64,000 nt of DNA from an uncultured Clostridia bacterium (GCA_947630765.1 CANRIX010000012.1:12129-76128), one strand, 5' to 3'. Shown: positions 18,059-37,617, counted from the stretch's first letter. A program made the numbers and translations. The notes: generated by a model from the letters alone, not told the origin.

Positions 18059-21000
18059 ATGAGCAAGTTCGGTACAAACAAGAGATGGATCGCATTGCTG
18101 CTGGCTGTCGTCATGCTGACGGGCATTCCGATCGCCACCGGCGCATTTTCCGTGAAAGCGGATGAATTCTTGCGGTTCACAGAAACTGACGTCTCGCCGG
18201 AGATCCATAAGGGCCTGGGCGATTTGCTGCCCGACGCCCCGCTTGCGCAGGAACCGGCGCCGGACGACGTGGTTCGTGTGTCCATCGTTCTGGAGGATGC
18301 ACCCACGCTGCAGAAAAAGTATTCCACCATCGGTATTGCGGCAAACGCAGAGGCAATGGCGTACAGCGATTCCCTGCGCGAGAAGCAGAATGCGGTGGAA
18401 AGCGTCATCGAGCGCGACGTCCTGCAGGGAAAACAGCTGGACGTGGTGTGGAATCTGACGCTCGCCGCCAACATCATCTCCGCAAACGTTGCATACGGGC
18501 GCGTTGACGCCATCAAATCCGTTTCCGGCGTCAAGGACGTCGTTTTGGAAAAGCAGTATGCGCCTGCGGTGGTAAATGATGAGCTGCCTGCCGACCCCAA
18601 CATGGGCACCTCCTCCGCTCAAATCGGTTCTCCTGCCGCTTGGGCCGGGAAGTTCTACGGTGCGGGAAGCAAAGTCGCGATCATCGACACGGGCATTGAT
18701 ACGAATCATCAGTCCTTCGACGAAGCGGCGTTCAATTACGCGCTCGAACAGCATGAAGTGACCGATACGCAAAAGGATTCCATGCTGACGGAGAAAGAGG
18801 TTCAGGAGCTTCTGAGCAAGCTGCATATCGCGGACCTCGCCGATCCGGACAAGATTTTCGTTTCCAATAAGATTCCGTTCGCATTCAACTATGTGGACGA
18901 AAACCACGATATTACGCACGACAATGACGAACAAGGCGAACACGGTTCCCACGTCAGCGGTATCGCTGCGGCAAACGCCTTTATCCCGCAGGGCGACGGT
19001 TTTGTTCCCGCGCTGGACGCGGTCAAGACGCAGGGCGTTGCGCCCGATGCGCAGATCCTGACTATGAAGGTGTTCGGTTCCAGCGGCGGCGCCTATGAAT
19101 CCGACTACATGGTCGCGATCGAGGACGCGATCCTGCTGGGTGCGGATTCCGTCAACCTGTCGCTGGGCTCCGCGGCGCCTGGTTTCGGCAACAGCGGCAT
19201 CTATGACGAAATCCTCAACGACCTGATGGTCAACAGCGACACGGTCGTTACCATGTCCGCCGGCAACAACGGCTACTGGGCGGAGAATTCCGAAGTCGGC
19301 GACCTGTTCGGCGACGACGTGAGCTTCCACACCGGCGGCTCGCCCGGAAGCTTTACGAATTCCCTCGCGGTCGCGTCCGTGGATAACGTCGGTCGTACCG
19401 ATTATTATGTCCGCGTGGGCGACAAAATGGTCTTCTATACCGATACCAACGCCAACTACGGGAAACCCGGTCTGGCTTCCATCGCCAGCGACGAGGCGTA
19501 CCCGTTTGTCTACCTCGACACGGTCGGTATTCATACGACGACGTTCCTCGGCACGATTACGGTGACGCTTGAGGATCAGCTTGAAGAGCTGGACGAGCAT
19601 CTGAAGGCGAACGGCGACGAAAACGGTCTGAAGGGCAAGGTCGTCCTTGTCAACCGCGGTATTTCGAGCTTCGCGCTCAAGTGCTCCGCCGCGGCGGAGC
19701 TCGGCGCGGCTGCCGTGATCATCGTCGACAATGCCCCGGGCAGCACCATCAACATGGATCTGACCGATTATACCGGCGAAGTGCCTGCCGTTGCCATTTC
19801 CATGGAGGACGGCGCCCTGTTCCGTGCCGGCGGCATTGCCGGAAAGGTTCCCGTTCAGTATGACAACGACGGCGAGAACAACCCGTGGGATGCGCCCTAC
19901 TACACCGGCGAATTCTACATTTCCGCGGAAGTCGGCTCCACCGACAGCGAAGCGGACCCGGACAATCGCTACACGATGTCCAGCTTCTCCTCCTGGGGCG
20001 TTCCCGGATCTCTGGTCATGAAGCCTGAGATCACCGCTCCCGGCGGAAACATCTATTCCGTCAACGGCGCGATCGAAAGCGGCGACGCTTACGAGAATAT
20101 GTCCGGCACCTCCATGGCGGCGCCGCAGGTGACCGGCATGGTTGCGGTCGTCGCGCAGTACATTCGCGAGAACGAGGCGAAGTTTGATCAGGTTGACTTC
20201 GACTATCGCCGCGCGCTCATCAACAGCCTGCTGATGTCCACGGCCAAGCCGGTCATCGCGGAGGACGGCAGTTACTACTCCATCCTCAGCCAGGGCGCCG
20301 GTCTTGCCAACGTCGGCGCGGCGATCCAGGCGCAGGCGGTCATTCAAATGGCGGAGAACGCCACGGCTTCCTATGCCGACGGCAAGGTCAAAGTCGAACT
20401 CGGCGACGACCCGAAGAAGGACGGCACCTACACGTATTCGTTCCTGATCACCAACGTGGGTGAAACGGATAATGAATACTTGCTTTCCACCGATCTGTTC
20501 ACGCAGGACCTGTACGAAGCGTATGGGTACACTTGGTTGGACACCGCGACCACGGAGCTGGGCGCATCGGTCAGCTACACGGTCCTCGCTGCTGATTTCA
20601 ATCGCGACGGCGTGACCGATTCGCGTGACGCGCAGGATATTCTTGATTATCTTTCCGACAGCGGCAAGATCGATCCTGAGACGGTCGATCCCGAAGCGGG
20701 CGATATGGACGGAGACGGCGAACTGACGACCTACGACGCGCATCTGATCCTTGCCGGGGCCGGCAAGACTGTCGATGCGGGCGCCGGTGATTCCATCGTC
20801 GTGGCCGCCGGCGAAACCGTCACGGTCAATGTTACCATCAACGTCAACAAGAGAGACCTTTCCGCTTACGAAAACGGCGCGTATGTCGAGGGTTACACCT
20901 TTGTGACGGCCGTTCCGAACGAAGAAGGCGTGCAGGATGTGGAGTACTCCATCCCGATCCTCGGGTTCTACGGGAATTGGAGCGAACCCTCCATGTTCGA

Positions 21001-24000
21001 CCGCACCAACTATCAGGAAACCGCGGATTACATCATTTACGGTCAGGACAGCGGGAATATCCCGTATAACAGCGATACGTCTATGTCCAACGTCCTGATC
21101 TATAAGGACAGCAACACCAAAGCCGAAGACGGAAAGCTCATCAACCCGTTCTATGCATACGGTCTCCCGGACCTCGGCGGTTTTGACTTCTACGATACCG
21201 ATGCGTCGCGCACCTCCATCAAGAGCAGCGACACGCTGGTCGGTTATGAATTCGCACTGATCCGCAACGCGTATGTGGCGGCCGTCATTGAAGATGCGGC
21301 GGGGAACGTCCTCGGTCTCACGGCTCCCACCGAGACAAACAGCGGATTCTACTACACCAACGGACAGGTTTGGCAGTCCCTCGTTTCCATGATGGGGATC
21401 AACCAGAAGGTTTCCGCGCTCGGACTTGACGAAGGCGACAGCTTCACCGTCAAGCTGGTTGCGCTGCCCGAATACTACTTCGGAAAAGCGCTTTCCGAGA
21501 GTGCGGAAGGCGAGCCGGTCAACACCGTTACTGCAAACGAGTTCCAGACCGTTTACAATACGGTCGAGATCGGAGATGGCGCGGTCCTTTCCACGACCAT
21601 GACCATTGACGATACCAAGCCGGAAATGCTTACGGCCCGCAGAAAGATGAGCGGCGAACTGGAGGTCACCCTGCAGGATAACCGTTATGTCGCGCACGTC
21701 AGCCTGAGAACGGCGGACGGCACCGGCTTCATCGACTGCGTTCTTCCCGAGCAAACCGCGCCGAACCAGGAATGCGTCGTCACCTTCCCGTGGCAAGAGG
21801 TCCAGACTCTTGTCAATGCGACTGAAGAAAACAAGGTCATGATCTATGTGGCCGACTACGCGGAGAACATTCACGCGTATATCATTGATCTGGCGACGGA
21901 AGAGGCCGAAGAAGCGGCTCCCACGGATATCGAACTTCCGGCGGAGGTCCACGTCTTTAACGGCGGCGTTTCCAGCGTCACGGCGACGATCCTCCCCTCG
22001 ATCATGACCGCGTCTGATTTGAACTGGTCGGTCGATAATCCCGAGGTCGCCGACGTGGACGAATTCGGAAACGTCACGGGTCTCAGCGTCGGCGAGGCGA
22101 CCCTCACCGCCGCTTCCAAGAAGGATCCTTCGATCAATGCGACCTCCAAGATCGTCGTCAAGGATGCGCCGAGCATTGATCTCGCAGGTATGGTCTTCAA
22201 CAAGGACAGCGAAACCTGGTGGAGCACCTTCAACCTGCAGGATCCCAGCCAATTCAAGCAAGTCGCGCAGGGTCCGGCGCTGTACGCGGGCGATTTCGCG
22301 CTTGGCTTCCAAACGATGTACGGGCATGACGGGACCAACGTCTGGAGAGTGGATATGAACACCTTCGAGTCGAAGTCGCTGTTTGCCATGAATCCGACAT
22401 ACCTGTTCCCGGACGCGGCTGTGAATAACTACTTTGCGGTGTATGGCGCGGGCGATTACGCGCTCCTTGCGCCGCAGGCGAACAGTGCGATCCTGATGAT
22501 CCTGCTGCCGGAAGCGGGCAATTTGTACACGGTCGATCTTTCGAGCGCGCTTCCCAGCAACATCTGCGCCATCGCGTTCAGCGGAATGGATGATTACAGT
22601 GAGCGCGACTACTACTACATGCTGCTGGAGAACGGCGACCTGTATCAGATTTATCTGTCCTCTGCCGGAAGCCTCGGCTACGGTCCGGTCGGCAACGTCG
22701 GCATGACCTTCGACGGCGCCGCCGCTGCGGACGGCACTTCGGTCACGTCCATGATGTACAGCTTCACCGCAAGAGAGTCGTTGTATCCGGACGGCATGAC
22801 CGAGCCGCTGCTCCTGACCCACTACAAGGAAGGGGACAGCACTGCGTATCTCTCCCTCATTGAAATCACCTTTGACGACATGGGCGATATCGCCTTCTGC
22901 GGAATCGCGGGTTCGATGCCCTTCGGCGACGCAGTCTGGCCGGTCAGCGCTCTGTACGATCCCGAGATGGTCGAGCCGGCTGACGAAGGCAACACCGTAC
23001 ACGCGCTTGCGGAGTACACGGTCGTCAACAACCTGTCCGACAAGATGTCGATGGTCGCCCCGGAAACCGAAAGCACTGCGCTCGGCGGAACGGGCAGCAC
23101 GTTCGTTCTGAATAAGAAGAACGGCGGCTCCGTCGCGCCCAATTCGATCGGCGTGGGCGGCAGCACGACCTACAACGTGGTGGATGTGGCGAACAACACC
23201 GTCACGATTGATATTTCTGCGGACGATTCTACGAACGGCCTGTTCAAGGTCGCCTGCCCTGCCGAACTGTCCCTGGTCAGTGTCGAGGGGTTGGTAGACT
23301 TCTATGCAAACGGCACTGCCGAGGATGGCTCCGTCGTCTTTGCATACGCCGACGCCGATTCTTTGACCTGCCCGGTCGCGAAACTGGTCTTCTCCTATGA
23401 GGAGGCGGACGAGTTGAAGCTGGTCGGGAAGACCGTCGATGTGACCACGGTCGAAGACGGCGAACCCGGCAAGGCGGAATCCGTCGAAACCATTCTGTTG
23501 ACCTTCGAGCCGGAGAGCTACGAGCTTTCTGTGCAGGTGGTTGACGGTTCTCACGATGCGCCGAATACCATCACCGAGGGCGAGGAAGCTTCCTTCACGA
23601 TCAAACCGAACGAAGGGTACAAACTGCCTGAGAGCGTCACCGTCACCATGAACGGTGAGGCGATGGATTCTGCGAACTACACCTACGATCCCGAAACCGG
23701 AGCTGTGACGCTGCAGAGCGACTACATCACCGGGCCGATCGTCGTCACGGCGTCCTGCGTCTACGTTCCGAAGGAATTCACGACCGACGCAGATGTGGAT
23801 AACGGCAGCACGACGATCCCGGAAACGGTGACCGAAGGCGAAGATGTTTCCTTCACGGTCAAACCGTCTGAAGGTTACAAGCTGCCTGAAAGCATCACGG
23901 TCAAGGTGAACGGCGTCGCTCTTGCGGCAGGTGACTACACCTACAACGCAGAGACCGGCGAAGTGGTGATTCCGGGCGACAAGGTGACTGGTCCGATCTC

Positions 24001-24319
24001 GGTTGAGGTCGCGTTTGTGGCTGCCGATGCCCCCGGAGACGAACCTTCTGAAGGCGACACTTCCTCCGGAGATACTCCCTCTGGTGGCGATACCTCCTCT
24101 GGTGACGACACCTCGAGCACGACGCCCGGAACTTCCTCCGGCGACGAAACTTCAAGCACGGCGCCCGGAACCTCTTCCGGCGACGAATCCACCAGCCCGA
24201 CCACGGGCGACGACGCGAGCATCCTGTTCTTCGCAATCATGGGTGTTCTGGCGCTGGTCGGCGCGATCTCGGCGGTGCGCCTGCGCAGATTTTCCCTTGA
24301 TGAAAAGCGTGGTCACTAA
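18059..24319 (+). CDS. Cell-surface subtilisin-like (S8, lactocepin/C5a-peptidase-type) protease with PA, dockerin-like, Big_2 and cohesin-like modules and a C-terminal SPxTG sorting signal
   Basis: 2086 aa from the ATG at 18059 (RBS GGAAAGGAAGG), with signal peptide MSKFGTNKRWIALLLAVVMLTGIPIATGAFSVKA. Catalytic triad contexts: VAIIDTGID, EHGSHVSGIAA, MSGTSMAAPQVTG. PA insert: GKVVLVNRGISSF..AAVIIVDN. The ORF-track start at 17969 adds 30 non-signal residues. Confidence 0.92.
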   Translation: MSKFGTNKRWIALLLAVVMLTGIPIATGAFSVKADEFLRFTETDVSPEIHKGLGDLLPDAPLAQEPAPDDVVRVSIVLEDAPTLQKKYSTIGIAANAEAMAYSDSLREKQNAVESVIERDVLQGKQLDVVWNLTLAANIISANVAYGRVDAIKSVSGVKDVVLEKQYAPAVVNDELPADPNMGTSSAQIGSPAAWAGKFYGAGSKVAIIDTGIDTNHQSFDEAAFNYALEQHEVTDTQKDSMLTEKEVQELLSKLHIADLADPDKIFVSNKIPFAFNYVDENHDITHDNDEQGEHGSHVSGIAAANAFIPQGDGFVPALDAVKTQGVAPDAQILTMKVFGSSGGAYESDYMVAIEDAILLGADSVNLSLGSAAPGFGNSGIYDEILNDLMVNSDTVVTMSAGNNGYWAENSEVGDLFGDDVSFHTGGSPGSFTNSLAVASVDNVGRTDYYVRVGDKMVFYTDTNANYGKPGLASIASDEAYPFVYLDTVGIHTTTFLGTITVTLEDQLEELDEHLKANGDENGLKGKVVLVNRGISSFALKCSAAAELGAAAVIIVDNAPGSTINMDLTDYTGEVPAVAISMEDGALFRAGGIAGKVPVQYDNDGENNPWDAPYYTGEFYISAEVGSTDSEADPDNRYTMSSFSSWGVPGSLVMKPEITAPGGNIYSVNGAIESGDAYENMSGTSMAAPQVTGMVAVVAQYIRENEAKFDQVDFDYRRALINSLLMSTAKPVIAEDGSYYSILSQGAGLANVGAAIQAQAVIQMAENATASYADGKVKVELGDDPKKDGTYTYSFLITNVGETDNEYLLSTDLFTQDLYEAYGYTWLDTATTELGASVSYTVLAADFNRDGVTDSRDAQDILDYLSDSGKIDPETVDPEAGDMDGDGELTTYDAHLILAGAGKTVDAGAGDSIVVAAGETVTVNVTINVNKRDLSAYENGAYVEGYTFVTAVPNEEGVQDVEYSIPILGFYGNWSEPSMFDRTNYQETADYIIYGQDSGNIPYNSDTSMSNVLIYKDSNTKAEDGKLINPFYAYGLPDLGGFDFYDTDASRTSIKSSDTLVGYEFALIRNAYVAAVIEDAAGNVLGLTAPTETNSGFYYTNGQVWQSLVSMMGINQKVSALGLDEGDSFTVKLVALPEYYFGKALSESAEGEPVNTVTANEFQTVYNTVEIGDGAVLSTTMTIDDTKPEMLTARRKMSGELEVTLQDNRYVAHVSLRTADGTGFIDCVLPEQTAPNQECVVTFPWQEVQTLVNATEENKVMIYVADYAENIHAYIIDLATEEAEEAAPTDIELPAEVHVFNGGVSSVTATILPSIMTASDLNWSVDNPEVADVDEFGNVTGLSVGEATLTAASKKDPSINATSKIVVKDAPSIDLAGMVFNKDSETWWSTFNLQDPSQFKQVAQGPALYAGDFALGFQTMYGHDGTNVWRVDMNTFESKSLFAMNPTYLFPDAAVNNYFAVYGAGDYALLAPQANSAILMILLPEAGNLYTVDLSSALPSNICAIAFSGMDDYSERDYYYMLLENGDLYQIYLSSAGSLGYGPVGNVGMTFDGAAAADGTSVTSMMYSFTARESLYPDGMTEPLLLTHYKEGDSTAYLSLIEITFDDMGDIAFCGIAGSMPFGDAVWPVSALYDPEMVEPADEGNTVHALAEYTVVNNLSDKMSMVAPETESTALGGTGSTFVLNKKNGGSVAPNSIGVGGSTTYNVVDVANNTVTIDISADDSTNGLFKVACPAELSLVSVEGLVDFYANGTAEDGSVVFAYADADSLTCPVAKLVFSYEEADELKLVGKTVDVTTVEDGEPGKAESVETILLTFEPESYELSVQVVDGSHDAPNTITEGEEASFTIKPNEGYKLPESVTVTMNGEAMDSANYTYDPETGAVTLQSDYITGPIVVTASCVYVPKEFTTDADVDNGSTTIPETVTEGEDVSFTVKPSEGYKLPESITVKVNGVALAAGDYTYNAETGEVVIPGDKVTGPISVEVAFVAADAPGDEPSEGDTSSGDTPSGGDTSSGDDTSSTTPGTSSGDETSSTAPGTSSGDESTSPTTGDDASILFFAIMGVLALVGAISAVRLRRFSLDEKRGH
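20594..20758 (+). other. Internal dockerin-like (duplicated EF-hand-type Ca-binding) module of the S8 protease
   Basis: DFNRDGVTDSRDAQDILDYL ... DMDGDGELTTYDAHLILAG: two D-x-[ND]-x-D-G-x-x-x-x-x-D loops, each followed by a helix, about 35 aa apart. Confidence 0.6.
23168..23515 (+). other. Cohesin-like beta-sandwich module of the S8 protease (tentative)
   Basis: TYNVVDVANNTVTIDISADDSTNGLFKVACPAELSLVSVEG..GSVVFAYADADSL..VAKLVFSYE follows the cohesin pattern (selected strand, x-x-[FV]-x-[YC]-[DP]-x-x-[VL]-x-[LV], later G-x-[IV]-x-F.. and [IV]A.[IL].F). The call is by eye only. Confidence 0.4.
23516..24019 (+). repeat. Two tandem ~84-aa repeat domains in the S8 protease C-terminal region
   Basis: R1 (23516-23773) and R2 (23774-24019) align throughout: T[IV]TEGE[ED].SFT[IV]KP[NS]EGYKLPES[VI]TV..NG.a....YTY[DN].ETG.V....D..TGPI.V. 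Confidence 0.8.
24194..24316 (+). other. Sortase-type cell-wall sorting signal with SPxTG motif
   Basis: SPTTG (24194-24208), then the hydrophobic stretch ASILFFAIMGVLALVGAISAV, then the basic tail RLRRFSLDEKRGH. It is preceded by a Ser/Thr/Gly/Asp-rich linker (24019-24193). Confidence 0.7.
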
Positions 24320-24423
24320 AGACCCGCAATAGGGGGAATCCCAAGCAAAACAAAATTGTCTGCGCGAGCGCCGCGTAGGTCGGGCAACTGAAAACGACCG
24401 ATAGGCGTTCGCAAGGACGGAAA

Positions 24424-24463
24424 AACAGCACGGAGAGCAGAAATGCTTTCTGTGCTGTTTTTT
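24424..24463 (+). terminator. Rho-independent terminator after the S8 protease gene
   Basis: AACAGCAC (24424-24431) pairs with GTGCTGTT (24452-24459), with additional inner pairing, followed by TTTT. Confidence 0.7.
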
Positions 24464-24696
24464 GTGGCCGCGCTTGCGGGGAGACGTGCTGCGCGGCAGG
24501 GTCGATGGGGGAAAGCCGTCGCCGGACGTGCCCGTTCTGCTTGACGAAACTGTGCGGAGCGACGTGTGGGAGACCACGTTTGCGGGCGAAGACCGTTTGT
24601 CGTGCGGCAAGGGCGAGCGGAAAGAATGCCACCGTCGGATTTTCCATTCCGACCGGCGAAGCTGTGCTGATGCCGCGTGTCAGCGACCACGACCGC

Positions 24697-24738
24697 GAAA
24701 AAAATACGGCGCGGTTACCGTATCGGTGCCGCGCCGTA
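24697..24738 (-). terminator. Rho-independent terminator (minus strand) after the second SBP-like gene
   Basis: TACGGCGCGG (24705-24714) pairs with CCGCGCCGTA (24729-24738). The plus-strand A-run at 24698-24704 reads as a T-run after the hairpin on the minus strand. Confidence 0.8.
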
Positions 24739-24757
24739 TCTCCTTATCGGGGATGGT

Positions 24758-26302: not shown

Positions 26303-26337
26303 GGTCAAATGTTCCTTTCTGTTTTTCGTTTCACCAC

Positions 26338-26366
26338 AGTATACCATATTTCCTGCGGAAATGCAA
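26338..26366 (-). promoter_or_regulatory. Sigma-A-type promoter (minus strand) of the second SBP-like gene
   Basis: Read on the minus strand: TTGCAT (26366-26361), 17 nt, TATACT (26343-26338). Confidence 0.6.
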
Positions 26367-26377
26367 GGGCAAACGGC

Positions 26378-26425
26378 ACAAAAAATACAAAAGACCGGCG
26401 GTTCCACGTTTAGGTGGAGCCGCCG
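26378..26425 (-). terminator. Rho-independent terminator (minus strand) ending the murQ / GDPD / cohesin-dockerin unit
   Basis: On the minus strand, CGGCGGCTCCAC pairs with GTGGAACCGCCG (11 of 12 bp; plus coordinates 26396-26425), followed by GTCTTTTGTATTTTTT. Confidence 0.7.
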
Positions 26426-26442
26426 ATCTCGCAGGAAAGTAT

Positions 26443-27237: not shown

Positions 27238-27267
27238 GGTGCAGACCCCCTTTTGCGAAGGTTTGTG

Positions 27268-27298: not shown

Positions 27299-27313
27299 GA
27301 TTTGGGTTGAGAA

Positions 27314-30300: not shown

Positions 30301-30388
30301 CCACCGTCGCGGGAACGGAAAGGGACGAAACGACCGTTGCCAGCATCAACACAGTGAGCAGGACGGAAAGAATGCGTTTTGCTTTCAT
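27314..30388 (-). CDS. Secreted multidomain glycerophosphodiester phosphodiesterase (GDPD) with Big_2, LamG/ConA-like and C-terminal dockerin modules
   Basis: 1024 aa from the ATG at 30388 (RBS AAGGAG), with signal MKAKRILSVLLTVLMLATVVSSLSVPATVAES. GDPD core at about 28100-28740 (YTAHRGYS..ENSMAAY..ETDVHLSKDGVVMVMHDDTIDRTT). Dockerin at 27317-27511 (GDINSNGKVDAFDYMLVKRGAL..EINANDYMLIKRHVLKSF). The ORF-track start at 30931 is a shadow over murQ. Confidence 0.88.
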   Translation of the reverse strand: MKAKRILSVLLTVLMLATVVSSLSVPATVAESAEITLTYTNPALTVDVGTEIDLTKVSVQVDANTTLAAKDITWKNGDSAVTTVTPDKKGVTTLTATAGTTTKNVYVVAKNPDETEFVLYENDFDSATTASLAADGWIEGKNAAGGASPYSVSDGALHLGATSIGQSKLMLPKWLGDFGDYAITMSASQTEVANSARWSAIMFHVKDDGTYKEERHITIRANQTANTLEFSGMHNGAWEYPYVNTEYDLRISYVLNMITGYHDLTLNLFGGSAAFSVDGERAIYVEDISKLKNTKHEETTGLLGLLSDQGVLNVDSIKVTVMEQAPEKLPERDNLIDTSANRPQSNITSYVSDQAYAKDEAAFNAIVNAEKRPVAVLLDVAADVTAAKFETYLTTCYDKKIIPEFRITTDAQLTNLVTALKSTLVPEAVVVTPSAELLKSAREQRPANLRGIYEVTAETMTADERFAAYQTAAGANAQGILLPYALATKENVAVLQQFQLSVWALGTGVTTNTQAAYLLASGANAVISDNYALVSEAETKLFTAENSLTRTSVYTAHRGYSEKYAENSMAAYRAAYREGVDNLETDVHLSKDGVVMVMHDDTIDRTTAGTGYIHDKTFDELRQYTLDGTDEPIPTFEEMLIEFKDKDIKILCELKEDQAELPKKTAELVKKYEMEDQVVYISFHSNQVRLIKQELNTCADLLGGTVAQVTDTAAVLNGYYSLQTSALNCNGTLGPSYGGINAEYIRDAGDRGMTFWTWTYSSSVRSTVNQMFLAGMNGLTTNDAAYFKTVVKTITAPDTIRAATNNTFALNAKAVTYGNGSTSIGASAKIIPLDNDGVVEVNEDGTLTAKKNGEATVMVSYEATMPDGATKYTLYTQPITVKVGDIDTLTVNSTDYTLDGDKLTGVAEKTSAKDFLLAIADAGNAKIYDAKGEEVTDVDVIGNGYTIEYKGKKATIIVRGDINSNGKVDAFDYMLVKRGALKTFKLTDIQTLAADVMVDSKDEINANDYMLIKRHVLKSFNLFA

Positions 30389-30441
30389 TGAGGTGAACTC
30401 CTTTTCTGCGATTTTATCTGTTTTTCTTTTTTCTCTCTCGG

Positions 30442-31293
30442 TTATTCGCACGACCCCGACAGCCCCGTGCCCGCTTCGATCGCGTCCATCGCATCGGCAA
30501 TAACGTTGTGCGCCTTTTCCAGCTCGCGCGCCGCGCGTTCGGGGGCGCAGCCGGTCTTTTGGCAGATCATGCGGATCGCCCGGTCGACCAATTTGCGGTT
30601 GGACGGGATCATGTACGCCATATAATTCCCGCGCACCCGCCCGAAGCGGACCATCCCGCCGGTCGAGAGCATATTGAGGATCATTTTCTGCGCCGTGCCG
30701 GCCTTCATGCGGGTCGAGCCGCTGATGACCTCGGGGCCGACCTCGGCGATGATCGCGAGGTCCGAAAGCGGGATCAGGTCGCTGCCACGGTTGCAGGAGA
30801 TGCAGACGGTTTTCGCCCCGCACGACCGCGCGTACCGCAACGCACCCTTGACGCATTCCGCCGAGCCGCTCGCGGAGATCGCGACGAGCAGATCCGCTTC
30901 GCCGAACGCGTATTCCCCGCGCAGCAGGCAAACCAGACTATCCGGGTCGTCCTCGGCGTCCTCGGAAGGGTGGATCAGCGCGCTGGTTCCGCCCGCCATC
31001 AGACCGATGACGCGGTCCTGCAAACCGTACGTCGGCGGGATCTCGGCCGCGTCCACCACGCCGAGCCGCCCGGACGTTCCCGCGCCGCAGTAGAACACGC
31101 GACCGCCCGCACGCAGCGCACCGGCGAACAGCTCGATCCCTTCGGCGACCTGCGGCAGGCAACGCTCCACCGCGAGCGCGACGGTCTGGTCCTCCCGGTT
31201 GATCAGCCGGGCGATCTCCAGCGCGTCCATTCTGTCGATGGACGCGGCGGCGGCATTTTCGCCCTCCGTTGCAAGTTTGCCAAAATCTGCCAT
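30442..31293 (-). CDS. murQ: N-acetylmuramic acid 6-phosphate etherase
   Basis: 283 aa. SIS-domain MurQ signature: LATEGENAAAASIDRMDALEIARLINRED..VFYCGAGTSGRLGVVDAAEIPPTYG..ISASGS..GSTRMKAGTAQK. Confidence 0.92.
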   Translation of the reverse strand: MADFGKLATEGENAAAASIDRMDALEIARLINREDQTVALAVERCLPQVAEGIELFAGALRAGGRVFYCGAGTSGRLGVVDAAEIPPTYGLQDRVIGLMAGGTSALIHPSEDAEDDPDSLVCLLRGEYAFGEADLLVAISASGSAECVKGALRYARSCGAKTVCISCNRGSDLIPLSDLAIIAEVGPEVISGSTRMKAGTAQKMILNMLSTGGMVRFGRVRGNYMAYMIPSNRKLVDRAIRMICQKTGCAPERAARELEKAHNVIADAMDAIEAGTGLSGSCE

Positions 31294-31321
31294 TTGTTTC
31301 CCTTTCTGGCGCCGAAAAACG

Positions 31322-31337
31322 GTATCGGAACCGATAC
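31322..31337. promoter_or_regulatory. Operator-like palindrome at the predicted murQ transcription start
   Basis: GTATCGG-AA-CCGATAC (7-2-7 inverted repeat), 6 nt downstream of the murQ -10 box and 29 nt upstream of the murQ ATG. Confidence 0.45.
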
Positions 31338-31343
31338 AAGTTT

Positions 31344-31372
31344 ATTTTAACACAGAAGAAGCGGTTTGTCAA
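31344..31372 (-). promoter_or_regulatory. Sigma-A-type promoter (minus strand) of murQ / GDPD-dockerin / cohesin-dockerin
   Basis: Read on the minus strand: TTGACA (31372-31367), 17 nt, TAAAAT (31349-31344). Confidence 0.65.
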
Positions 31373-31414
31373 TCGTTTTTGCAATTTCTTTTCGGAAAAA
31401 TGTCTTAAAACCCG

Positions 31415-31443
31415 TTGACAAAAAAAGGGAGATATGGTAGTAT
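31415..31443 (+). promoter_or_regulatory. Sigma-A-type promoter of the GT2 gene cluster (divergent from murQ)
   Basis: TTGACA (31415-31420), 17 nt, TAGTAT (31438-31443). Confidence 0.55.
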
Positions 31444-31480
31444 TGAATAAAGTAGGTCAGAGAAGGGGGAGAGCGTGAAA

Positions 31481-32467
31481 ATGGCGGAGCAAAAACAGGG
31501 AAAACCGCGTATCAGCGTCATGGTTCCCTGCTATAATGAGGAGGAATCCCTGCCGCTTTTCCGCGCGGAGATCTGCCGGGTGATGGAGCTGATGCCGCAG
31601 TATGCGTTCGAGGTGATCCTCGTCGATGACGGGTCGCGGGACGGAACGCTCGGATTGATGCGGCAGGCCGCGTCGGAGGACGAGCGGTTCCGTTACGTTT
31701 CGTTCACCCGCAATTTCGGCAAGGAGGCGGCCATGTACGCCGCGCTGCAGGTGTCCCGCGGGGATTACGTCGTCTATATGGACGCGGACCTGCAGGACCC
31801 GCCGGCGCTTTTGCCGCAGATGATGGAAAAGCTCGAACAGGACGAAACGCTCGACAGCGTCGGCACCCGCCGAAGCTCCCGCAAGGGCGAACCGCCGATC
31901 CGCAGCTTCTTCGCAAACCTGTTCTACCGCATGATCAACCGCATTTCCGACGTCCGGCTGATCCCCGCCGCGCGGGATTACCGGCTTATGACCCGCCGCA
32001 TGGCGGATTCGGTGCTGTCGCTGTGCGAGTACAACCGATTTTCCAAGGGCATTTTCGAGTGGGTCGGCTATCGGACGGAATGGATCTCCTATGAGAATAT
32101 CGAGCGTTCCGCCGGAAAGACCAAATTTTCCTTCTGGAAGCTGTTTAAGTATTCGTTGGAGTGCATCGTCGCGTTCTCGACGGCACCGCTCGCGATCGCG
32201 TCCGTGATGGGCGTGTTGTTCTGCTTCGCGTCGTTCGTGGGGATCCTCGTCATCATCATCCGTGCGCTGCTCGGTGTGTCGTCCGCGTTCGGCTGGCCGT
32301 CCATGATGTGCGTGATCCTGTTCGTCGGCGGGATGCTGGAGCTGTCCATCGGCATTCTGGGCGAATACCTGTCGAAGGCGTACCTCGAAACCAAGCGGCG
32401 TCCGATCTACCTTGCGCGGGAAACGGAGGAGGACCTGCGGAAGAAGCGGGAGAAGGAAGGCGACTGA
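31481..32467 (+). CDS. Family-2 glycosyltransferase, polyprenyl-phosphate sugar transferase type (GtrB/CsbB-like)
   Basis: About 328 aa. ATG at 31481 lies 10 nt after GGGGGA; a GTG at 31475 is also possible. Motifs: ISVMVPCYNEE, VDDGSRDGT, DADLQDPP. Two C-terminal TM helices, as in GtrB. Confidence 0.88.
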   Translation: MAEQKQGKPRISVMVPCYNEEESLPLFRAEICRVMELMPQYAFEVILVDDGSRDGTLGLMRQAASEDERFRYVSFTRNFGKEAAMYAALQVSRGDYVVYMDADLQDPPALLPQMMEKLEQDETLDSVGTRRSSRKGEPPIRSFFANLFYRMINRISDVRLIPAARDYRLMTRRMADSVLSLCEYNRFSKGIFEWVGYRTEWISYENIERSAGKTKFSFWKLFKYSLECIVAFSTAPLAIASVMGVLFCFASFVGILVIIIRALLGVSSAFGWPSMMCVILFVGGMLELSIGILGEYLSKAYLETKRRPIYLARETEEDLRKKREKEGD

Positions 32468-32806
32468 ATGTTCGGCAGGAAACGGAAGGACAAACCGCCC
32501 CGCAACACGGACAGCCCGGAGTTCCGGCTCTGGATGGCGGAAAGGCTGGACGGGCGGACGCTGCGCTATATCCTCGAACGGGAGGAAAACGGGGAGGAGC
32601 GGGTGCTCGCGAAGGGCGGCGTCCTGAGCAATTATGAAGGGAATTTCAGCGTCATCAGCGGGGAAAAGACGATTTTTTGCGTCAGATCCGCCGACCTGCA
32701 CGCGTGGGAGTTCCTTTCGCTGGAAGGCGCGACGCTGACCGGCTATGATCAGACGGTAGGCAGGGAACGAACCATCCTCGCTTACTATAAATACTACAGA
32801 GATTGA
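32468..32806 (+). CDS. Hypothetical soluble protein (no family recognised)
   Basis: 112 aa. The ATG abuts the GT2 stop (TGAATG), suggesting translational coupling. Basic N-terminus MFGRKRKDKPPRN, no TM, C-terminal YYKYYRD. Confidence 0.5.
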   Translation: MFGRKRKDKPPRNTDSPEFRLWMAERLDGRTLRYILEREENGEERVLAKGGVLSNYEGNFSVISGEKTIFCVRSADLHAWEFLSLEGATLTGYDQTVGRERTILAYYKYYRD

Positions 32807-32830
32807 CAAAACGTCAAGGAGGAATTGTTC

Positions 32831-33922
32831 ATGGACAAAAAGTTAAGAATCGGCGTCATCGGGTGCGGCGGCATCGCCAACGGCAAGCATCTGCCGTCGC
32901 TCAAGAAGTGCTCCGACCTCGCGGAAATGGTGTGGTTCTGCGACCTGGTGCAGTCCAAAGCGGAGGCCGCCGCCAAGGCGTACGGAACGCCGGACGCGAA
33001 GGTCACGACGGACTACAAGGAGGTCCTCGCGGACCCGACCGTGGACGTGGTACATGTCTGCACGCCGAACCGCTCCCACAGCTTCATCACCGTCGATGCG
33101 CTCGAAGCGGGCAAGCACGTCATGTGCGAAAAGCCGATGGCGATCAACGCCGCGGAGGCGCAGAAGATGCTCGACGCCGCGAAGCGCACCGGCAAGAAGC
33201 TGACCATCGGCTACCAGAACCGGCAGCGCCCGGATTCGCTCTTCATCAAGCGGGAGTGCGAGGAAGGCACGCTGGGCGAGATCTACTACGCGAAGGCGAC
33301 GGCGATCCGCCGCAGGGCGGTCCCGACGTGGGGCGTGTTCATGAACGAGTACGAGCAGGGCGGCGGTCCGCTGATCGACATCGGCACGCACGCGCTGGAC
33401 CTGACGCTCTGGTGCATGAACAACTATGCGCCGAAGTACTGCGTCGGCACGGTCTACCACAAGCTCGGCGAGAAGTTTCCGACCGGCAACGCCTGGGGCG
33501 ACTGGAAGAGCGGCGACCTGACCGTTGAGGACAGCGCGTTCGGCTTCATCGTCATGGAGAACGGCGCGACCATCGTCCTCGAATCCAGTTGGGCGCTGAA
33601 TATGCTCGACCCGCGTGAGGCGATCACGACGCTTTGCGGCACGGAGGGCGGTGCGGATATGCTGGACGGCGTGCGGATCAACGGCATCCGTCAGGGTCGT
33701 CAGTACGTCCTCAAGCCCGACCTGAACGCAGGCGGCGTCGCCTTCTACGAGGGGACCGGCAACGGCACGCCGGAGGAGCGCGAAGCCCGCAGCTGGCTCA
33801 ACGCGGTGCTGAACGATACCGACCCGTTCGTCCTGCCGGAGCAGGCGTTGGTCGTCAGCCGCATTCTGGAGGGCATCTATGTGTCCGCCAAGACCGGGGA
33901 ACCGTATTACTTCAATAAATAA
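32831..33922 (+). CDS. Gfo/Idh/MocA-family NAD(P)-dependent oxidoreductase
   Basis: 363 aa. ATG lies 7 nt after AAGGAGG. Rossmann start: LRIGVIGCGGIANGKHLP. Family motif: VHVCTPNRSH..ALEAGKHVMCEKP. Confidence 0.88.
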   Translation: MDKKLRIGVIGCGGIANGKHLPSLKKCSDLAEMVWFCDLVQSKAEAAAKAYGTPDAKVTTDYKEVLADPTVDVVHVCTPNRSHSFITVDALEAGKHVMCEKPMAINAAEAQKMLDAAKRTGKKLTIGYQNRQRPDSLFIKRECEEGTLGEIYYAKATAIRRRAVPTWGVFMNEYEQGGGPLIDIGTHALDLTLWCMNNYAPKYCVGTVYHKLGEKFPTGNAWGDWKSGDLTVEDSAFGFIVMENGATIVLESSWALNMLDPREAITTLCGTEGGADMLDGVRINGIRQGRQYVLKPDLNAGGVAFYEGTGNGTPEEREARSWLNAVLNDTDPFVLPEQALVVSRILEGIYVSAKTGEPYYFNK

Positions 33923-33942
33923 AGAATAAGGAGGCAATCCCT

Positions 33943-34911
33943 ATGAAGCTGGGCGTTATCACCGTCCTGTTCGGCGACCAACCGCTGAACGAGGCGCTCG
34001 CGTACCTCAAATCCATCGGCATCGAGGAGCTTGAAGTCGGCGCCGGTGGGTATCCGGGCAAGGCGCACTGCGACCCTGCGGTCCTGCTGAAGGACGAGCG
34101 CAAGCTCGCGGAATTCCGCGAGACCATCGAAACCTACGGAATGCCGATCAACGCGTTCGGCTGCCACGGCAACCCGGTACACCCGGACAAGGAGATCCGC
34201 GAGAAGTACCGCGCGGACTTCCACGACGCGATCCTGCTGGCGGAAAAGCTGGGGATCCGTAAGATCATCGGTTTCTCCGGCTGTCCCGGCGACTGCGAAA
34301 CCTCCCGCAACCCGAACTGGGTCACCTGCCCGTGGCCGAACGAGTATTACGACGTGCTCCAGTGGCAGTGGGAGAAGGTCCTGATCCCCTATTGGAAAGA
34401 GGAAGTCAAGTTCGCCGAGGCGCACGGCATCGAGAAGATCGCGTTGGAGATGCACCCGGGCTTCTGCGTGTACAACCCGGAAACGCTTCTGCACCTGCGG
34501 AGCGAAGTCGGCAAGCTGATCGGTGCGAACCTCGACCCGTCCCATTTGATCTGGCAGGGCATCGACCCGGTCGCCGCGACCCGTGCGCTCGGCGACGCGA
34601 TCTATCACGTCCACGCAAAGGACACGAAGGTGGATCGGCTCAACGTCGCGGTCAACGGCGTGCTGGACACCAAGCCGTATGCGGACGAACTGCACCGTGC
34701 GTGGGTGTTCCGCTCCGTCGGGTACGGCAACGATATGCAGTACTGGCGGGACTTCATCAGCAACCTGCGTTTGGTGGGGTACGACGACATCCTCTCCATC
34801 GAGCACGAGGACAGCATCATGACCAATCGCGAGGGGCTGGAAAAGGCCGCCTACTTCCTCAAGCAGGCGATCATTCGCGAACCGAAGCCGACCGGCATGT
34901 GGTGGGTGTAA
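33943..34911 (+). CDS. Xylose-isomerase-like TIM-barrel protein (sugar phosphate isomerase/epimerase family)
   Basis: 322 aa. MKLGVIT..LAYLKSIGIEELEV, IALEMHPG, ILSIEHED: typical AP_endonuc_2/TIM-barrel metal-ligand contexts. Confidence 0.8.
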   Translation: MKLGVITVLFGDQPLNEALAYLKSIGIEELEVGAGGYPGKAHCDPAVLLKDERKLAEFRETIETYGMPINAFGCHGNPVHPDKEIREKYRADFHDAILLAEKLGIRKIIGFSGCPGDCETSRNPNWVTCPWPNEYYDVLQWQWEKVLIPYWKEEVKFAEAHGIEKIALEMHPGFCVYNPETLLHLRSEVGKLIGANLDPSHLIWQGIDPVAATRALGDAIYHVHAKDTKVDRLNVAVNGVLDTKPYADELHRAWVFRSVGYGNDMQYWRDFISNLRLVGYDDILSIEHEDSIMTNREGLEKAAYFLKQAIIREPKPTGMWWV

Positions 34912-34952
34912 GTCCCGTAAAACCTGCGGCTTTGTTGCCGAAAAACGCATCG

Positions 34953-34990
34953 AAAAAGGGTGCGGCGCTGAAAACGCCGCACCCTTTTTT
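34953..34990. terminator. Bidirectional rho-independent terminator between convergent genes
   Basis: GGGTGCGGCG (34958-34967) pairs with CGCCGCACCC (34975-34984). It is flanked by AAAAA (34953-34957) and TTTTTT (34985-34990). Confidence 0.85.
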
Positions 34991-35001
34991 AGACGGAGCG
35001 G

Positions 35002-35232
35002 TCAGGAAATATCGTCCGTGAGGTAGTCGCGATCCGGGCTTCGTTCTTGAATTGTTCCGATTTTTGTTTCCGCCGTTTCGCGGTTGGGGACCCGAATCAA
35101 AATTCCTTCGTCTGTGGCGAATATTTCCACCCGTTTGCCTGTCGGCATTTTGAAGAAATCCCGATATTCTTTCGGGAGCGTTACCCTTCCCATATGGTCA
35201 ATTTTTCTGGTGATTCCGATCAAACCCGTCAT
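35002..35232 (-). CDS. AbrB/SpoVT-family DNA-binding transition-state-regulator-like protein
   Basis: 76 aa from the ATG at 35232 (RBS GGGGA). GITRKIDHMGRVTLPKEYRDFFKM parallels B. subtilis AbrB GIVRKVDELGRVVIPIELRRTLGI. Confidence 0.8.
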   Translation of the reverse strand: MTGLIGITRKIDHMGRVTLPKEYRDFFKMPTGKRVEIFATDEGILIRVPNRETAETKIGTIQERSPDRDYLTDDIS

Positions 35233-35272
35233 TTTGCTTCCCCTTTCCAAATTTGCAATTGGCATAGAATCT

Positions 35273-35287
35273 ATGCTATACGCTAAT
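35273..35287. promoter_or_regulatory. Third (12/15) copy of the ATGCTATTTGCTAAG motif, upstream of the AbrB-like gene
   Basis: ATGCTATACGCTAAT, which overlaps a 7-1-7 palindrome GCATAGA-A-TCTATGC at 35262-35276. It lies 41-55 nt upstream of the AbrB-like start. Confidence 0.45.
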
Positions 35288-35370
35288 TCTACACCCATAT
35301 TTACAGGAAAGATGTCGAACGGGGGTGGAGATTGATGACTTCTTTTGTCAACTTTCGGCGAAAAAGTACA

Positions 35371-35401
35371 AAAAAAGGAGACGCCGGGATTCGGCGTCTC
35401 C
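35371..35401 (-). terminator. Rho-independent terminator (minus strand) after the XRE regulator gene
   Basis: GGAGACGCCG (35377-35386) pairs with CGGCGTCTCC (35392-35401). The plus-strand A-run at 35371-35376 reads as a T-run on the minus strand. Confidence 0.8.
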
Positions 35402-35412
35402 GAAGTAACGGA

Positions 35413-35736
35413 TTACTGCTGGTTTTCAACGTAGACCGCAATCATTTCCGCGATGCACTTCCGCTGTTTGGGCGACAACCCTGCGAGCATCTGCGTGATT
35501 TCGTCAAAGACATAATCTTTCCCGGTCGAAAGCTCGTTTCTCAGGATATAGTCCGCCGAAACGCCCAAGGCCTCGATCAGTTTGATAAAGACTTTCAGGC
35601 TCGGCATTTTCTTCCCACGCTCGATCTCGCCGAGGTACATGACGCCGATATCGGCAAGTTCCGCAAGCTGTTCCTGCGTCAGCGACCTGCCGGTCCGCGC
35701 TTCCCGCAGCGCTTTGCCTAATTCGACCTTATCCAC
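35413..35736 (-). CDS. XRE-family helix-turn-helix transcriptional regulator
   Basis: 107 aa with a GTG start after AAGGGGG. HTH_3 signature: LREARTGRSLTQEQLAELADIGVMYLGEIERGKKMPSLKVFIKLIEALGV. Confidence 0.85.
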   Translation of the reverse strand: MDKVELGKALREARTGRSLTQEQLAELADIGVMYLGEIERGKKMPSLKVFIKLIEALGVSADYILRNELSTGKDYVFDEITQMLAGLSPKQRKCIAEMIAVYVENQQ

Positions 35737-35747
35737 TTGTCCGCCCC

Positions 35748-35840
35748 CTTAGCAAATAGCATGAATTCTACCAAAAGTATACGCGATACCGCCACAAAAG
35801 GGAATAAGCGCATGGCGTTTCATATATGCTATTTGCTAAG
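35748..35840. repeat. Perfect 15-bp inverted repeat bracketing the XRE promoter region
   Basis: CTTAGCAAATAGCAT (35748-35762) and its exact reverse complement ATGCTATTTGCTAAG (35826-35840), separated by 63 nt of AT-rich sequence. The proximal arm abuts the XRE RBS. Confidence 0.85.
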
Positions 35841-35856
35841 AAGAAAAAGAGCTTTT

Positions 35857-36600
35857 TTATTTGTCTTGCGTCGGGTCTTGTGCCGCGGATTCGCAGAGCG
35901 CCGCCAATTCCGCGTCGGTCGCCTCACGGACAGCGCCTTCCGGCAGGTCGTCCGGCAGATTGAGGTTTCCGATGGCGACGCGGTGCAGCCCGACGACCGC
36001 CGCGCCGCAGGCGGCGAACATCCGCTTGATCTGGTGGTATCGCCCCTCGGTCAGGGTCACGAGGGCGGTATTTTGCCCGACGATCGAAAGCGACGCCGGT
36101 TTGCAGACCCCGTCGGAGAGTTCCACCCCTTTCGCGAAGCGTTTCGCCATTTCTTCGGTCGGCGGGACGTCGAGCGTGACGAAGTAGCGCTTCTTGACGT
36201 GCCGCTTGGGGGCGAGGATGCGGTGGGCGAACTGCCCGTCGTCGGTCAGGAGCATCAGCCCGGTCGTGTCCTTGTCCAGCCGCCCCGCCGGGAACAGCCC
36301 GCGCCGGAACAGTGTCGGCGGGACCAGTTCGAGCACGGTGGGTCCGTCCCCCGCGTCGGTCGACGAAACGTAGCCCTTCGGCTTGTGGAGCAGCAGGTAG
36401 ACGTGGGTTTTAAGCGTCAGCGGGACGCCGTCGATCGCGACGGACGCGGTTTCCGGGTCGATTTTCTGCTCCGCGCTCTTCGCCCGCACGCCGTCGACCG
36501 TGACCCGTCCGCGTGCGATCAGCGCTTTCGCGTCCCGGCGGGAAAGCGGGGTCTCCCCGCCCTGCGAAGCGAGCAGTTTGTCCAGCCGTTCGGGCTTCAT
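35857..36600 (-). CDS. rRNA pseudouridine synthase, RsuA/RluB family (S4 domain + PseudoU_synth_2)
   Basis: 247 aa. S4 N-terminus: RLDKLLAS..SRRDAKALIARGRVTVDG. Catalytic motif: GRLDKDTTGLMLLTDDG. Confidence 0.88.
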   Translation of the reverse strand: MKPERLDKLLASQGGETPLSRRDAKALIARGRVTVDGVRAKSAEQKIDPETASVAIDGVPLTLKTHVYLLLHKPKGYVSSTDAGDGPTVLELVPPTLFRRGLFPAGRLDKDTTGLMLLTDDGQFAHRILAPKRHVKKRYFVTLDVPPTEEMAKRFAKGVELSDGVCKPASLSIVGQNTALVTLTEGRYHQIKRMFAACGAAVVGLHRVAIGNLNLPDDLPEGAVREATDAELAALCESAAQDPTQDK

Positions 36601-37472
36601 GCGGGGTTGCGCGGCAGGGCGTAGGTGCCGAGGACTGCCCGCTTGACGAGCATGTAGTCAACGGCATTGACGGCGCCGTCCCGGTTCACGTCCGCGTAGC
36701 CGGTGCGTTCGCCGAGAGAAAAGGTGCCGAGGACGTCCCGCTTGACGAGCATATAATCCACGGCATTTACGCGGCCGTCGCCGTTCGCGTCGCCGAGGTC
36801 CAGACGGTACAGGGCGTCGACGAGTGCGGACGCGTAGAGCGCGTAGCCCCGTGCGTTCGGGTGTACGCCGTCCGCGAGCAGACCGTCGACCGTGCCCTTA
36901 GTCATTTCCGCCGTTTCGGTGAAGATTCGGTACAGGTCCGCCGTGACCAGACCGTATTCCGCCGCGAGCTCCCGCGCAGCAAGGACGTATTGCAGGTAGA
37001 AGGCGTTCGCCCCGCCGTGCGGTTCAAATACGGCGCGGTCGTGCCGGGTGTAGTAGTCGGTTTCGCCGATCGGGTTTTCGATGACCAGCACCACGCGTGC
37101 GCCGGCGGCGGTCGCCCGTTCGATCATGTCCCGCAGATTTGCGCGATAGGTTTCGAGCGGCACATACTTCGCCATGTCCAGCGCCGCGTCGTTCATGCCG
37201 AAGGAGAGCAGCAGGACGTCCGGCTTTTGCGCGAGCGCCGAGGCAAACGCCGCCCGCCCGTCGGCGGAATTCCAGCCCCCGACGGCCTTATTGACGACGG
37301 AAATGCCGAACGCCTTTTCCGCGTCGGAGAACCACGCCCCGGAAGCCGTGATGCTGTCGCCGAACGCGACGATCTTTTTGTCCCGGCTTGTCAGTGCGGA
37401 CGGGCAGACCGCGCAAACGGAGAAAAGCACGGAAAGCGCCAGCAGGAGGGAAGAAAAGCGGAACCGTTTCAT
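36597..37472 (-). CDS. Secreted SGNH/GDSL-family esterase with C-terminal dockerin
   Basis: 291 aa from the ATG at 37472, with signal MKRFRFSSLLLALSVLFSVCAVC. SGNH block I is IVAFGDSITASG; later blocks are GMND and DGVHPN. Dockerin at 36600-36794 (GDANGDGRVNAVDYMLVKRDVLGTF..DVNRDGAVNAVDYMLVKRAVLGTY). The stop overlaps the rsuA-like start (ATGA). Confidence 0.85.
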   Translation of the reverse strand: MKRFRFSSLLLALSVLFSVCAVCPSALTSRDKKIVAFGDSITASGAWFSDAEKAFGISVVNKAVGGWNSADGRAAFASALAQKPDVLLLSFGMNDAALDMAKYVPLETYRANLRDMIERATAAGARVVLVIENPIGETDYYTRHDRAVFEPHGGANAFYLQYVLAARELAAEYGLVTADLYRIFTETAEMTKGTVDGLLADGVHPNARGYALYASALVDALYRLDLGDANGDGRVNAVDYMLVKRDVLGTFSLGERTGYADVNRDGAVNAVDYMLVKRAVLGTYALPRNPA

Positions 37473-37581: not shown

Positions 37582-37617
37582 AAGGAAAAAGGAAACCGGA
37601 AAGAAGGAAATTTGTTT

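Follow-up and report, generated by a model that had tools for sequence, protein, structure and literature searches.

The window analysed here, that is, the whole 64,000-nt stretch of DNA from an uncultured Clostridia bacterium (GCA_947630765.1 CANRIX010000012.1:12129-76128), encodes four dockerin-bearing proteins: a small cohesin-dockerin protein, a GDPD-type phosphodiesterase, an SGNH esterase and a giant S8 protease that also carries a probable cohesin. The best explanation is that the region gives a sample of a cohesin-dockerin system, non-cellulosomal and genome-wide, in an uncultured gut lineage of Oscillospiraceae-like Clostridia. On balance we lean slightly towards a surface-associated, Ca-dependent system in which the cargo would break down polymers of the envelope, the small protein would serve as a monovalent connector, and murQ, the gene for N-acetylmuramic acid 6-phosphate etherase, would handle the recovered N-acetylmuramic acid (MurNAc). 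The first-pass annotation had taken the 20 kb holding these genes as a single network, a view that could not be kept: the protease gene is strain-variable and its modules are of other subtypes, and the SGNH gene lies in a transcription unit of its own. Since the operon around the small protein is kept, the 20 kb are better described as a single conserved operon to which two independent dockerin genes are added.

A conserved, apparent operon encodes a small cohesin-dockerin protein

The gene set of the window was obtained by frame choice from G+C content at third codon positions (GC3), combined with Pfam and NCBIfam scans. Four co-directional genes, namely murQ, the GDPD-dockerin gene, the cohesin-dockerin gene and the gene of a lipoprotein resembling solute-binding proteins (SBP-like), are bracketed by a promoter-like and a terminator-like site, suggesting an operon of which murQ would be the first and the lipoprotein gene the last member. 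MurQ has SIS domains and matched its NCBIfam model, whose cut-off is 255 bits, with a score of 324. The order murQ, GDPD, cohesin-dockerin was kept in all nine related loci, that is, in the five closest genomes, hereafter sister genomes (L001-L005; gut metagenome-assembled genomes (MAGs) that bear the labels Clostridia, Ruminococcus or Oscillospiraceae and of which three come from rabbit ('Lapin') samples), and in four more distant loci (L080-L083), where the small protein is only ~30% identical to that of the window. The lipoprotein gene is syntenic in L002, L003 and L005. MurQ had earlier been counted among the enzymes of the system; its identity and its adjoining, co-directional position stand, but as a cytoplasmic etherase it was rejected as extracellular cargo.

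The small protein combines a signal peptide with a single cohesin and a dockerin at its C-terminus, which is the layout of a monovalent adaptor scaffoldin. Its AlphaFold2 (AF2) model has a pLDDT of 87.5, and the top 25 PDB matches found with Foldseek were all cohesins, with E values from 2e-8 (2vo8) to 1.6e-5 and target TM-scores of at most 0.73; among them was 8ajy, a Ruminococcus flavefaciens cohesin solved with the ScaH dockerin. A precomputed match to the Pfam Cohesin model (PF00963) is recorded for six homologues. Single-sequence searches of the cohesin segments of both the small protein and the protease against PDB sequences returned nothing relevant. The cohesin of the small protein is thus established by fold, as seen in the predicted structure. 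All 33 homologues (208-311 aa) have a dockerin, and this cohesin type was seen only in proteins that end in one, namely these 33 and the giant proteins of L080-L083 described below; in none of the proteins found was it fused to a sortase or SLH anchor.

The start codon of the small gene, in the stretch 27219-27321 of the window, is uncertain: no ATG or GTG start occurs downstream of the GDPD-terminal hairpin, and the candidates are an ATC at 27237, which AAGGGGG precedes by 8 nt, and a TTG at 27219. The 292-aa open reading frame (ORF) proposed by gene callers spans this hairpin, as do those of P0001 and P0003. L004 has a second, tandem cohesin-dockerin paralogue (10978-11952; 39% identical), which belongs to a subgroup with P0029, P0030 and P0062-P0071. 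In L080 (8916-15440) and L083 (8922-13811) the gene of a protein of 1600-2200 aa separates the lipoprotein gene from the one for the small cohesin-dockerin protein. The giant proteins of L080-L083, for which no Pfam annotation is recorded, have an N-terminal cohesin of the small-protein type, discoidin-like regions, dozens of Cys-rich ~35-aa CxxC repeats and a C-terminal dockerin. The SBP-like lipoprotein has paralogues with 24-35% identity, which tblastn located within a few kb of other dockerin genes (L042, L043, L055, L069, L007 and L044).

Dockerins of two subtypes

The four dockerins had been predicted from the sequence, and the Pfam Dockerin_1 model (PF00404, gathering cut-off 22.9 bits) found all of them in place, with 63.1 bits for the SGNH esterase, 59.1 bits for the small protein and 36.9 bits for GDPD; the internal dockerin of the S8 protease was marginal, barely over the cut-off at 23.1 bits (E = 8.6e-5). 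Tandem repeats of ~22 residues, in each of which a helix comes after a Ca loop of the EF-hand kind (D-x-[ND]-x-[DN]-G-...-D), are present in two copies, and a six-frame motif scan of the 64 kb confined the dockerin Ca-loop matches to these four ORFs. The signature said to occur twice in each of the three C-terminal dockerins is exact in the first repeats, whereas the second repeats only approximate it, starting with A instead of G and, in GDPD, carrying a 3-residue insertion. In the AF2 model of the small protein the dockerin helices lie at residues 213-223, 231-237 and 247-258, and the profile of the small-protein family matched solved dockerins with E values from 4e-23 to 1e-9.

The small cohesin protein ends in the same dockerin subtype (...DY[LM]L[VLI]KR...), hereafter the cargo type, as do GDPD and the SGNH esterase, and in the window the small-protein dockerin is 58-60% identical to the two cargo dockerins. 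A hidden Markov model (HMM) built from these three did not detect the internal dockerin of the protease, which, by its sequence, is of another subtype. It is kept in homologous proteases (28.7, 28.7 and 23.6 bits), and its two canonical loops are strongly conserved in ~20 family members, with the motif DVNKDGVTD..DAQAILDYL...GDVDGDGKITTYDAHLILA. In a test for concerted evolution, dockerin identity was 52.6% within genomes versus 47.0% across genomes, reaching 73% in L004; as the excess is small, it is treated only as a hint of a shared partner. A third dockerin subtype (...DVTRLLRYLA...) follows a protease-like cohesin in a Clostridia MAG from goat caecum (L045 1-3534, L047 1-513), so that several dockerin types coexist in these genomes.

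Net charges range from 0 to +3 for the cargo dockerins and are -13 for the protease dockerin, -17 for the protease cohesin and -1 for the small-protein cohesin. These values weakly favour pairing of cargo dockerins with the protease cohesin over self-pairing, although this is a crude heuristic and no evidence of binding. The shared dockerin subtype raises a further question, namely whether the small protein binds dockerins of its own kind, thereby forming chains or acting as a soluble cap that competes with the cargo, instead of serving as an adaptor. The subtype that its dockerin shares with those of the cargo would fit such a role, as would the constant fusion of its cohesin type to a dockerin and never to a sortase or SLH anchor, and there is a precedent in R. 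bromii, where the cohesin of Amy4 binds the dockerin of the same protein (PMC4611034). Against this, the near-neutral cohesin of the small protein offers no obvious complementarity to these dockerins. Furthermore, known monovalent adaptors such as ScaC and ScaH usually switch specificity. We regard self-binding as rather unlikely.

Enzymes and cargo point to bacterial envelopes

The GDPD protein is secreted, with the signal peptide MKAKRILSVLL..., and its catalytic domain scored 125.9 bits with the Pfam GDPD model. The relatives found for it in the PDB are GDPDs of the GlpQ type, 5t91 among them (E = 5.5e-14), and comparison with the NCBIfam equivalogs gave 36-68 bits against cut-offs of 254-450, with no equivalog-level match to a teichoic-acid enzyme. 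The SGNH esterase matched Lipase_GDSL_2 (Pfam; 85.5 bits). The stop of its gene and the start of an rluA-like gene have 4 nt in common, within a transcription unit separate from the operon, and orthologues of the esterase are found in L001-L003. Teichoic acid as the GDPD substrate and O-acetylated peptidoglycan as the SGNH substrate are suggested by family membership only. Scans of the four proteins bore out the earlier statement that none is a plant-cell-wall glycosidase.

Retrieval with the cargo dockerin pattern yielded 79 loci with 125 ORFs. In the sister genomes, 20 additional dockerin proteins comprised a GH25+SH3+Flg_new protein, an Amidase_3 protein, two NAGPA and two GDSL proteins, a DUF4434 protein, five BspA-type LRR_5 proteins, two F5/8C (discoidin) proteins and several unknowns. 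Among 80 further dockerin proteins, the most frequent domains were F5/8C (12), CHAP (8), DUF4855 (7), NAGPA (7), LRR_5 (5), GHL10 (5) and CotH (4), with GH25, glucosaminidase and Amidase_2 occurring once each. GH9 and CBM3 were each found in two of these 80, in carriers not given in the summary table; the set includes Herbivorax and Clostridium sp. loci. No plant carbohydrate-active enzyme (CAZyme) or amylase with the cargo dockerin type occurred in the window or among the 20 proteins retrieved from the sister genomes, and the window and sister loci held only single-cohesin proteins and no multi-cohesin scaffoldin. The envelope-directed theme proposed in the first-pass annotation was strengthened by the wider sample, in which the same dockerin sits on GH25+SH3, Amidase_3, NAGPA, GDSL, CHAP, glucosaminidase and Amidase_2 proteins. 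As far as domain content can tell, the sister-genome cargo supports a theme that is both envelope-directed and non-cellulosomal.

Such a cargo could also be directed at the cell itself. That is, cohesin-dockerin pairs might replace LysM, SH3, CWB2 or SLH modules and hold the cell's own autolysins for growth, division, sporulation and wall recycling. GH25, amidase, CHAP, GDPD and SGNH are classic autolysin and wall-maintenance families, murQ is a peptidoglycan-recycling gene, in L069 a GH25-dockerin gene adjoins an Amidase_3+SH3 gene and spo0A, and R. bromii Sca2 has been proposed as a general surface-anchoring device (PMC4611034). However, the many LRR and discoidin binding proteins and the NAGPA- and GHL10-type enzymes are atypical of housekeeping wall turnover, and lytic enzymes with the cargo dockerin type are numerous for self-maintenance. 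Moreover, for the dockerin-linked lysozymes of rumen metagenomes the literature favours, as speculation, a competitive role (PMC6487960). A purely self-directed function seems rather unlikely to us.

The S8 protease belongs to a separate family

In the family of the S8 protease, an S8 domain with a PA insert is followed by an internal dockerin, Big_2 and a C-terminal cohesin, and then by either an xPxTG sortase signal or SLH repeats. The family is widespread and carries both modules regardless of the neighbouring genes. The SPxTG-type tail noted earlier is readable in the window copy as SPTTG, a hydrophobic stretch and RLRR; the tail scored 16.5 bits with Gram_pos_anchor (Pfam; cut-off 20), and xPxTG tails are conserved in homologues. 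A word-indexed protein search with the C-terminus gave no match, and an exhaustive HMMER search found 26 relatives of this segment. The Pfam Cohesin model was matched by 18 of 25 homologous protease segments (best E = 2.1e-9), the family profile matched the PDB cohesin 4ums (E = 0.0034), and hhalign aligned it with the small-protein cohesin family (E = 4.8e-5, probability 68%). The structural model of the module (pLDDT 82.8) was closest to Clostridium perfringens cohesins (E = 4e-4, TM-score ~0.6). Together, the homologues and the model indicate that the module is probably a cohesin. Small cohesin+SLH proteins (P0051 and P0058), whose layout is the classic one of an anchoring scaffoldin, have a cohesin of this type too. 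HMMs of the small-protein family did not detect the protease cohesin; as they missed its dockerin as well, the notion of one module type common to all four proteins was dropped.

The protease gene is present at this site in the window and in L003, and absent from L002 (12746-12984) and L005; there, oadB lies directly next to the lipoprotein gene at the place at which the window (17404-24758) has the 6.3-kb protease gene; the L001 contig ends before the site. Judged from these comparisons, the protease is a strain-variable neighbour from a separate, wall-anchored subtilase family with an acidic dockerin and an acidic cohesin. The ~85-aa C-terminal repeats (ITEGE..F.IKPNEGYKLPES..V..NG) vary in number: the window copy has two, the orthologue in L003, a protein of 2447 aa, about five (L003 13230-14800).

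It could be argued that the protease is altogether unrelated to the system, its dockerin being a Ca-binding stabilizer and its cohesin an Ig-like stalk, and that the region is simply an operon with two chance neighbours in a dockerin-rich genome. In addition to the absence of the gene from L002 and L005, this would account for the dockerin score at the Pfam threshold, for the strongly acidic character of both modules, for the separate unit of the SGNH gene, and for the tandem dockerin-gene clusters that are common in these genomes (L014, L056 and L074). Furthermore, Als and MSCRAMM Ig-like adhesin folds scored nearly as high as cohesins in the Foldseek search with the protease module, and in the window copy the near-invariant YD motif of the family is replaced by CP. 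However, an internal dockerin with two canonical loops is highly conserved in ~20 members, the same cohesin type is found in the small SLH-anchored proteins, and most family modules match the Pfam Cohesin model. We consider an unrelated protease doubtful, though a serious possibility.

Proposed assembly

In the proposed assembly, the secreted proteins would be held together at the cell surface by Ca-dependent dockerin-cohesin contacts, with the small protein as a monovalent connector similar to the ScaC/ScaH-type adaptors. The assembled enzymes would strip and cut bacterial envelope polymers, GDPD acting on glycerol-phosphate polymers or diesters and the SGNH esterase on O-acetyl groups, while peptidoglycan would be cut by GH25, amidase and CHAP enzymes encoded elsewhere. 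Recovered MurNAc could then enter metabolism via cytoplasmic MurQ. The neutral-to-basic cargo dockerins might be anchored covalently to the cell wall through the S8 protease, which is the weakest step. The roles of the protease as anchor and of the small protein as adaptor are inferred.

Several observations, together with the absence of the protease gene, the adhesin-like scores and the altered YD motif described above, weigh against this assembly. The cohesin-like segments proposed by the first-pass annotation are rightly placed, and homologues and models support them, but with the Pfam Cohesin model (gathering cut-off 24.1 bits) the small-protein module stayed under the cut-off at 15.4 bits (E = 0.021) and the window copy of the protease module gave no match. 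As the small-protein dockerin is of the cargo subtype, a simple adaptor hierarchy is not obvious. The nearest solved relatives are lipases or acetylxylan esterases for the SGNH protein and generic GlpQ-type enzymes for GDPD, and the cargo census covers loci retrieved via one dockerin pattern rather than whole genomes, which may encode dockerin-bearing plant CAZymes elsewhere. Finally, no permease gene adjoins the SBP-like gene in the window or its paralogue in L069, so that uptake of products by the lipoprotein stays speculative.

Gene map and neighbouring genes

The features of the region are listed in Table 1. The G+C content of the window is ~60-66%; at window 16000-36000 it is 0.56-0.61, below the 0.62-0.68 of the flanks, and GC3 is 0.74-0.77 in the genes for secreted proteins versus 0.85-0.92 in housekeeping genes. 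The latter make up the remaining genes of the window, e.g. ligA, recD2, ispH-S1, cmk, pgk and tpi. VTC and DUF4956 genes come after the gene of a CotH protein of 1237 aa that has four lamin-tail domains (window 11093-16196); this protein has no dockerin, whereas the wider locus set includes four dockerin-bearing CotH proteins. A DUF4434 gene (window 37612-38583), divergent from the SGNH gene, encodes a protein without signal peptide or dockerin, and a DUF4434 protein with an N-terminal dockerin is found in Oscillospiraceae HAN082 (L010 9779-11470). A 2371-aa protein with GT2-like, glucoamylase-like and GH94 domains (window 55831-62946) resembles cyclic beta-1,2-glucan synthases.

Table 1. Features of the cohesin-dockerin region (window coordinates)
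Feature	Position	Strand	Basis or remark
S8 subtilase, 2086 aa	18059-24319	+	
S8 domain with PA insert	~18659-20248	+	Pfam, homologues
Internal dockerin of protease	20591-20746	+	Pfam, homologues
Big_2 of protease		+	Pfam, homologues
Cohesin-like module of protease	23132-23533	+	Homologues, structural model
Two ~85-aa repeats of protease	~23590-24100	+	
Putative sorting signal, SPTTG, hydrophobic transmembrane stretch, RLRR	24194-24316	+	Sequence reading
Terminator-like hairpin and T-run	24703-24724	-	3' of lipoprotein gene; consensus match only
SBP-like lipoprotein, 514 aa	24758-26302	-	Weak SBP_bac_1 match; lipobox LCAVVCAGC
Small cohesin-dockerin protein	26443 to ~27237	-	Pfam, AF2, Foldseek
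Dockerin of small protein	26446-26637	-	
Cohesin module of small protein	26647-27150	-	
14-bp G+C-rich hairpin	27268-27298	.	Between GDPD stop and cohesin-dockerin gene; inside the called N-terminal extension of the small protein
GDPD phosphodiesterase, 1024 aa, with dockerin	27314-30388	-	Pfam
Dockerin of GDPD	27323-27517	-	
GDPD domain	~28040-28720	-	
murQ	30442-31293	-	NCBIfam NF009222, SIS domains
Promoter-like site, TTGACA-17-TAAAAT with TG	31344-31372	-	Upstream of murQ; consensus match only
GT2 gene, 112-aa ORF, GFO and xylose-isomerase-like genes		+	
HTH gene		-	
rluA-like gene	35857-36600	-	
SGNH/GDSL esterase, secreted, 291 aa	36597-37472	-	
Dockerin of SGNH esterase	36630-36797	-	
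SGNH domain	36837-37367	-	

Comparison with known systems and significance

Catalogues of cohesin-dockerin pairs from outside cellulosomes go back more than 15 years, and most of these pairs have been given no role. The closest parallel in organization is the R. bromii amylosome (Sca1/Amy4, Sca2-Sca5), which likewise belongs to a gut host of the Ruminococcaceae type and has few proteins, each with one or two cohesins, a sortase-anchored cohesin protein (putatively the protease in the present system), a protein with both cohesin and dockerin, and dockerins on peptidases and LRR proteins, to which the Sca2 cohesin binds (PMC4611034). The core cargo of the amylosome, however, is GH13 amylases acting on starch, of which none was seen among the cargo retrieved from the sister genomes, where peptidoglycan hydrolases and phosphodiesterases are enriched instead. 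With the ScaC/ScaH adaptors of R. flavefaciens and R. champanellensis the small protein shares a signal peptide, one cohesin, a C-terminal dockerin, a length of ~250-300 aa and a place in a conserved cluster. However, only the fold is common, with no relationship at the sequence level, the neighbours are murQ and GDPD rather than scaA and scaB, and its dockerin is of the cargo subtype.

The C. perfringens toxin complexes (GH84 NagH/NagJ and GH33 NanJ) are also non-cellulosomal and have cohesins inside large catalytic proteins, and their cohesins 2vo8, 2jh2 and 2w1n are the best structural matches of both modules of the window. They differ in attacking host glycans through FIVAR/X82-dockerin pairs, whereas here an S8 protease has a dockerin, a probable cohesin and a putative sortase signal. 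The protease shares the S8 domain with PA insert, an fn3_5-like region, a long stalk and, putatively, a sortase anchor with the LPXTG streptococcal-type subtilases (SGO_0316 family, lactocepin/C5a-peptidase). It scores 158.6 against an NCBIfam cut-off of 1400 for these, adds the internal dockerin and the C-terminal cohesin, and belongs to a family of which some members are SLH-anchored.

Dockerins on cell-wall hydrolases have a further parallel in the R. champanellensis cellulosome, which, according to a paper citing Morais 2016, includes a dockerin-bearing GH25 lysozyme. On that true cellulosome the lysozyme is one minor passenger, whereas envelope-active enzymes are apparently the main cargo here and murQ lies in the operon. 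The term 'lyticome' was coined in a 2019 review for a hypothetical multi-enzyme complex dedicated to lysis, a concept and not a demonstrated complex (PMC6403190). The region could belong to a dedicated surface lyticome, without plant-fibre or starch enzymes and coupled to murQ, that lyses neighbours or digests dead walls with a cargo of mainly peptidoglycan hydrolases, teichoic-acid-type phosphodiesterases, deacetylases and the giant protease. We consider such a function unlikely. In the literature found on dockerin-linked lysozymes and the lyticome, neither a dockerin-bearing GDPD nor the protein family described here is reported.

Non-cellulosomal pairs were already known, as were lysozymes linked to dockerins, peptidases and LRR proteins that carry them, and the concept of a lyticome. 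What is new is a conserved operon that ties a cohesin-dockerin protein to GDPD and murQ, a cargo set that, to judge by the domains retrieved, is apparently dominated by envelope-active enzymes and without plant CAZymes, and a putatively wall-anchored subtilase family with both a dockerin and a cohesin. The region offers a compact, conserved and testable case that comprises a single operon, two types each of cohesin and dockerin, and a cargo list that is defined. If binding fails, it would be one more set of dockerin-tagged secreted proteins. If the proposed assembly is true, it would supply new lytic enzymes as well as new cohesin-dockerin pairs that are orthogonal, and would be a natural example of the proposed lyticome: a docking system that here seems to organize enzymes against bacterial envelopes, and that would give gut Clostridia a way to feed on or fight other bacteria.

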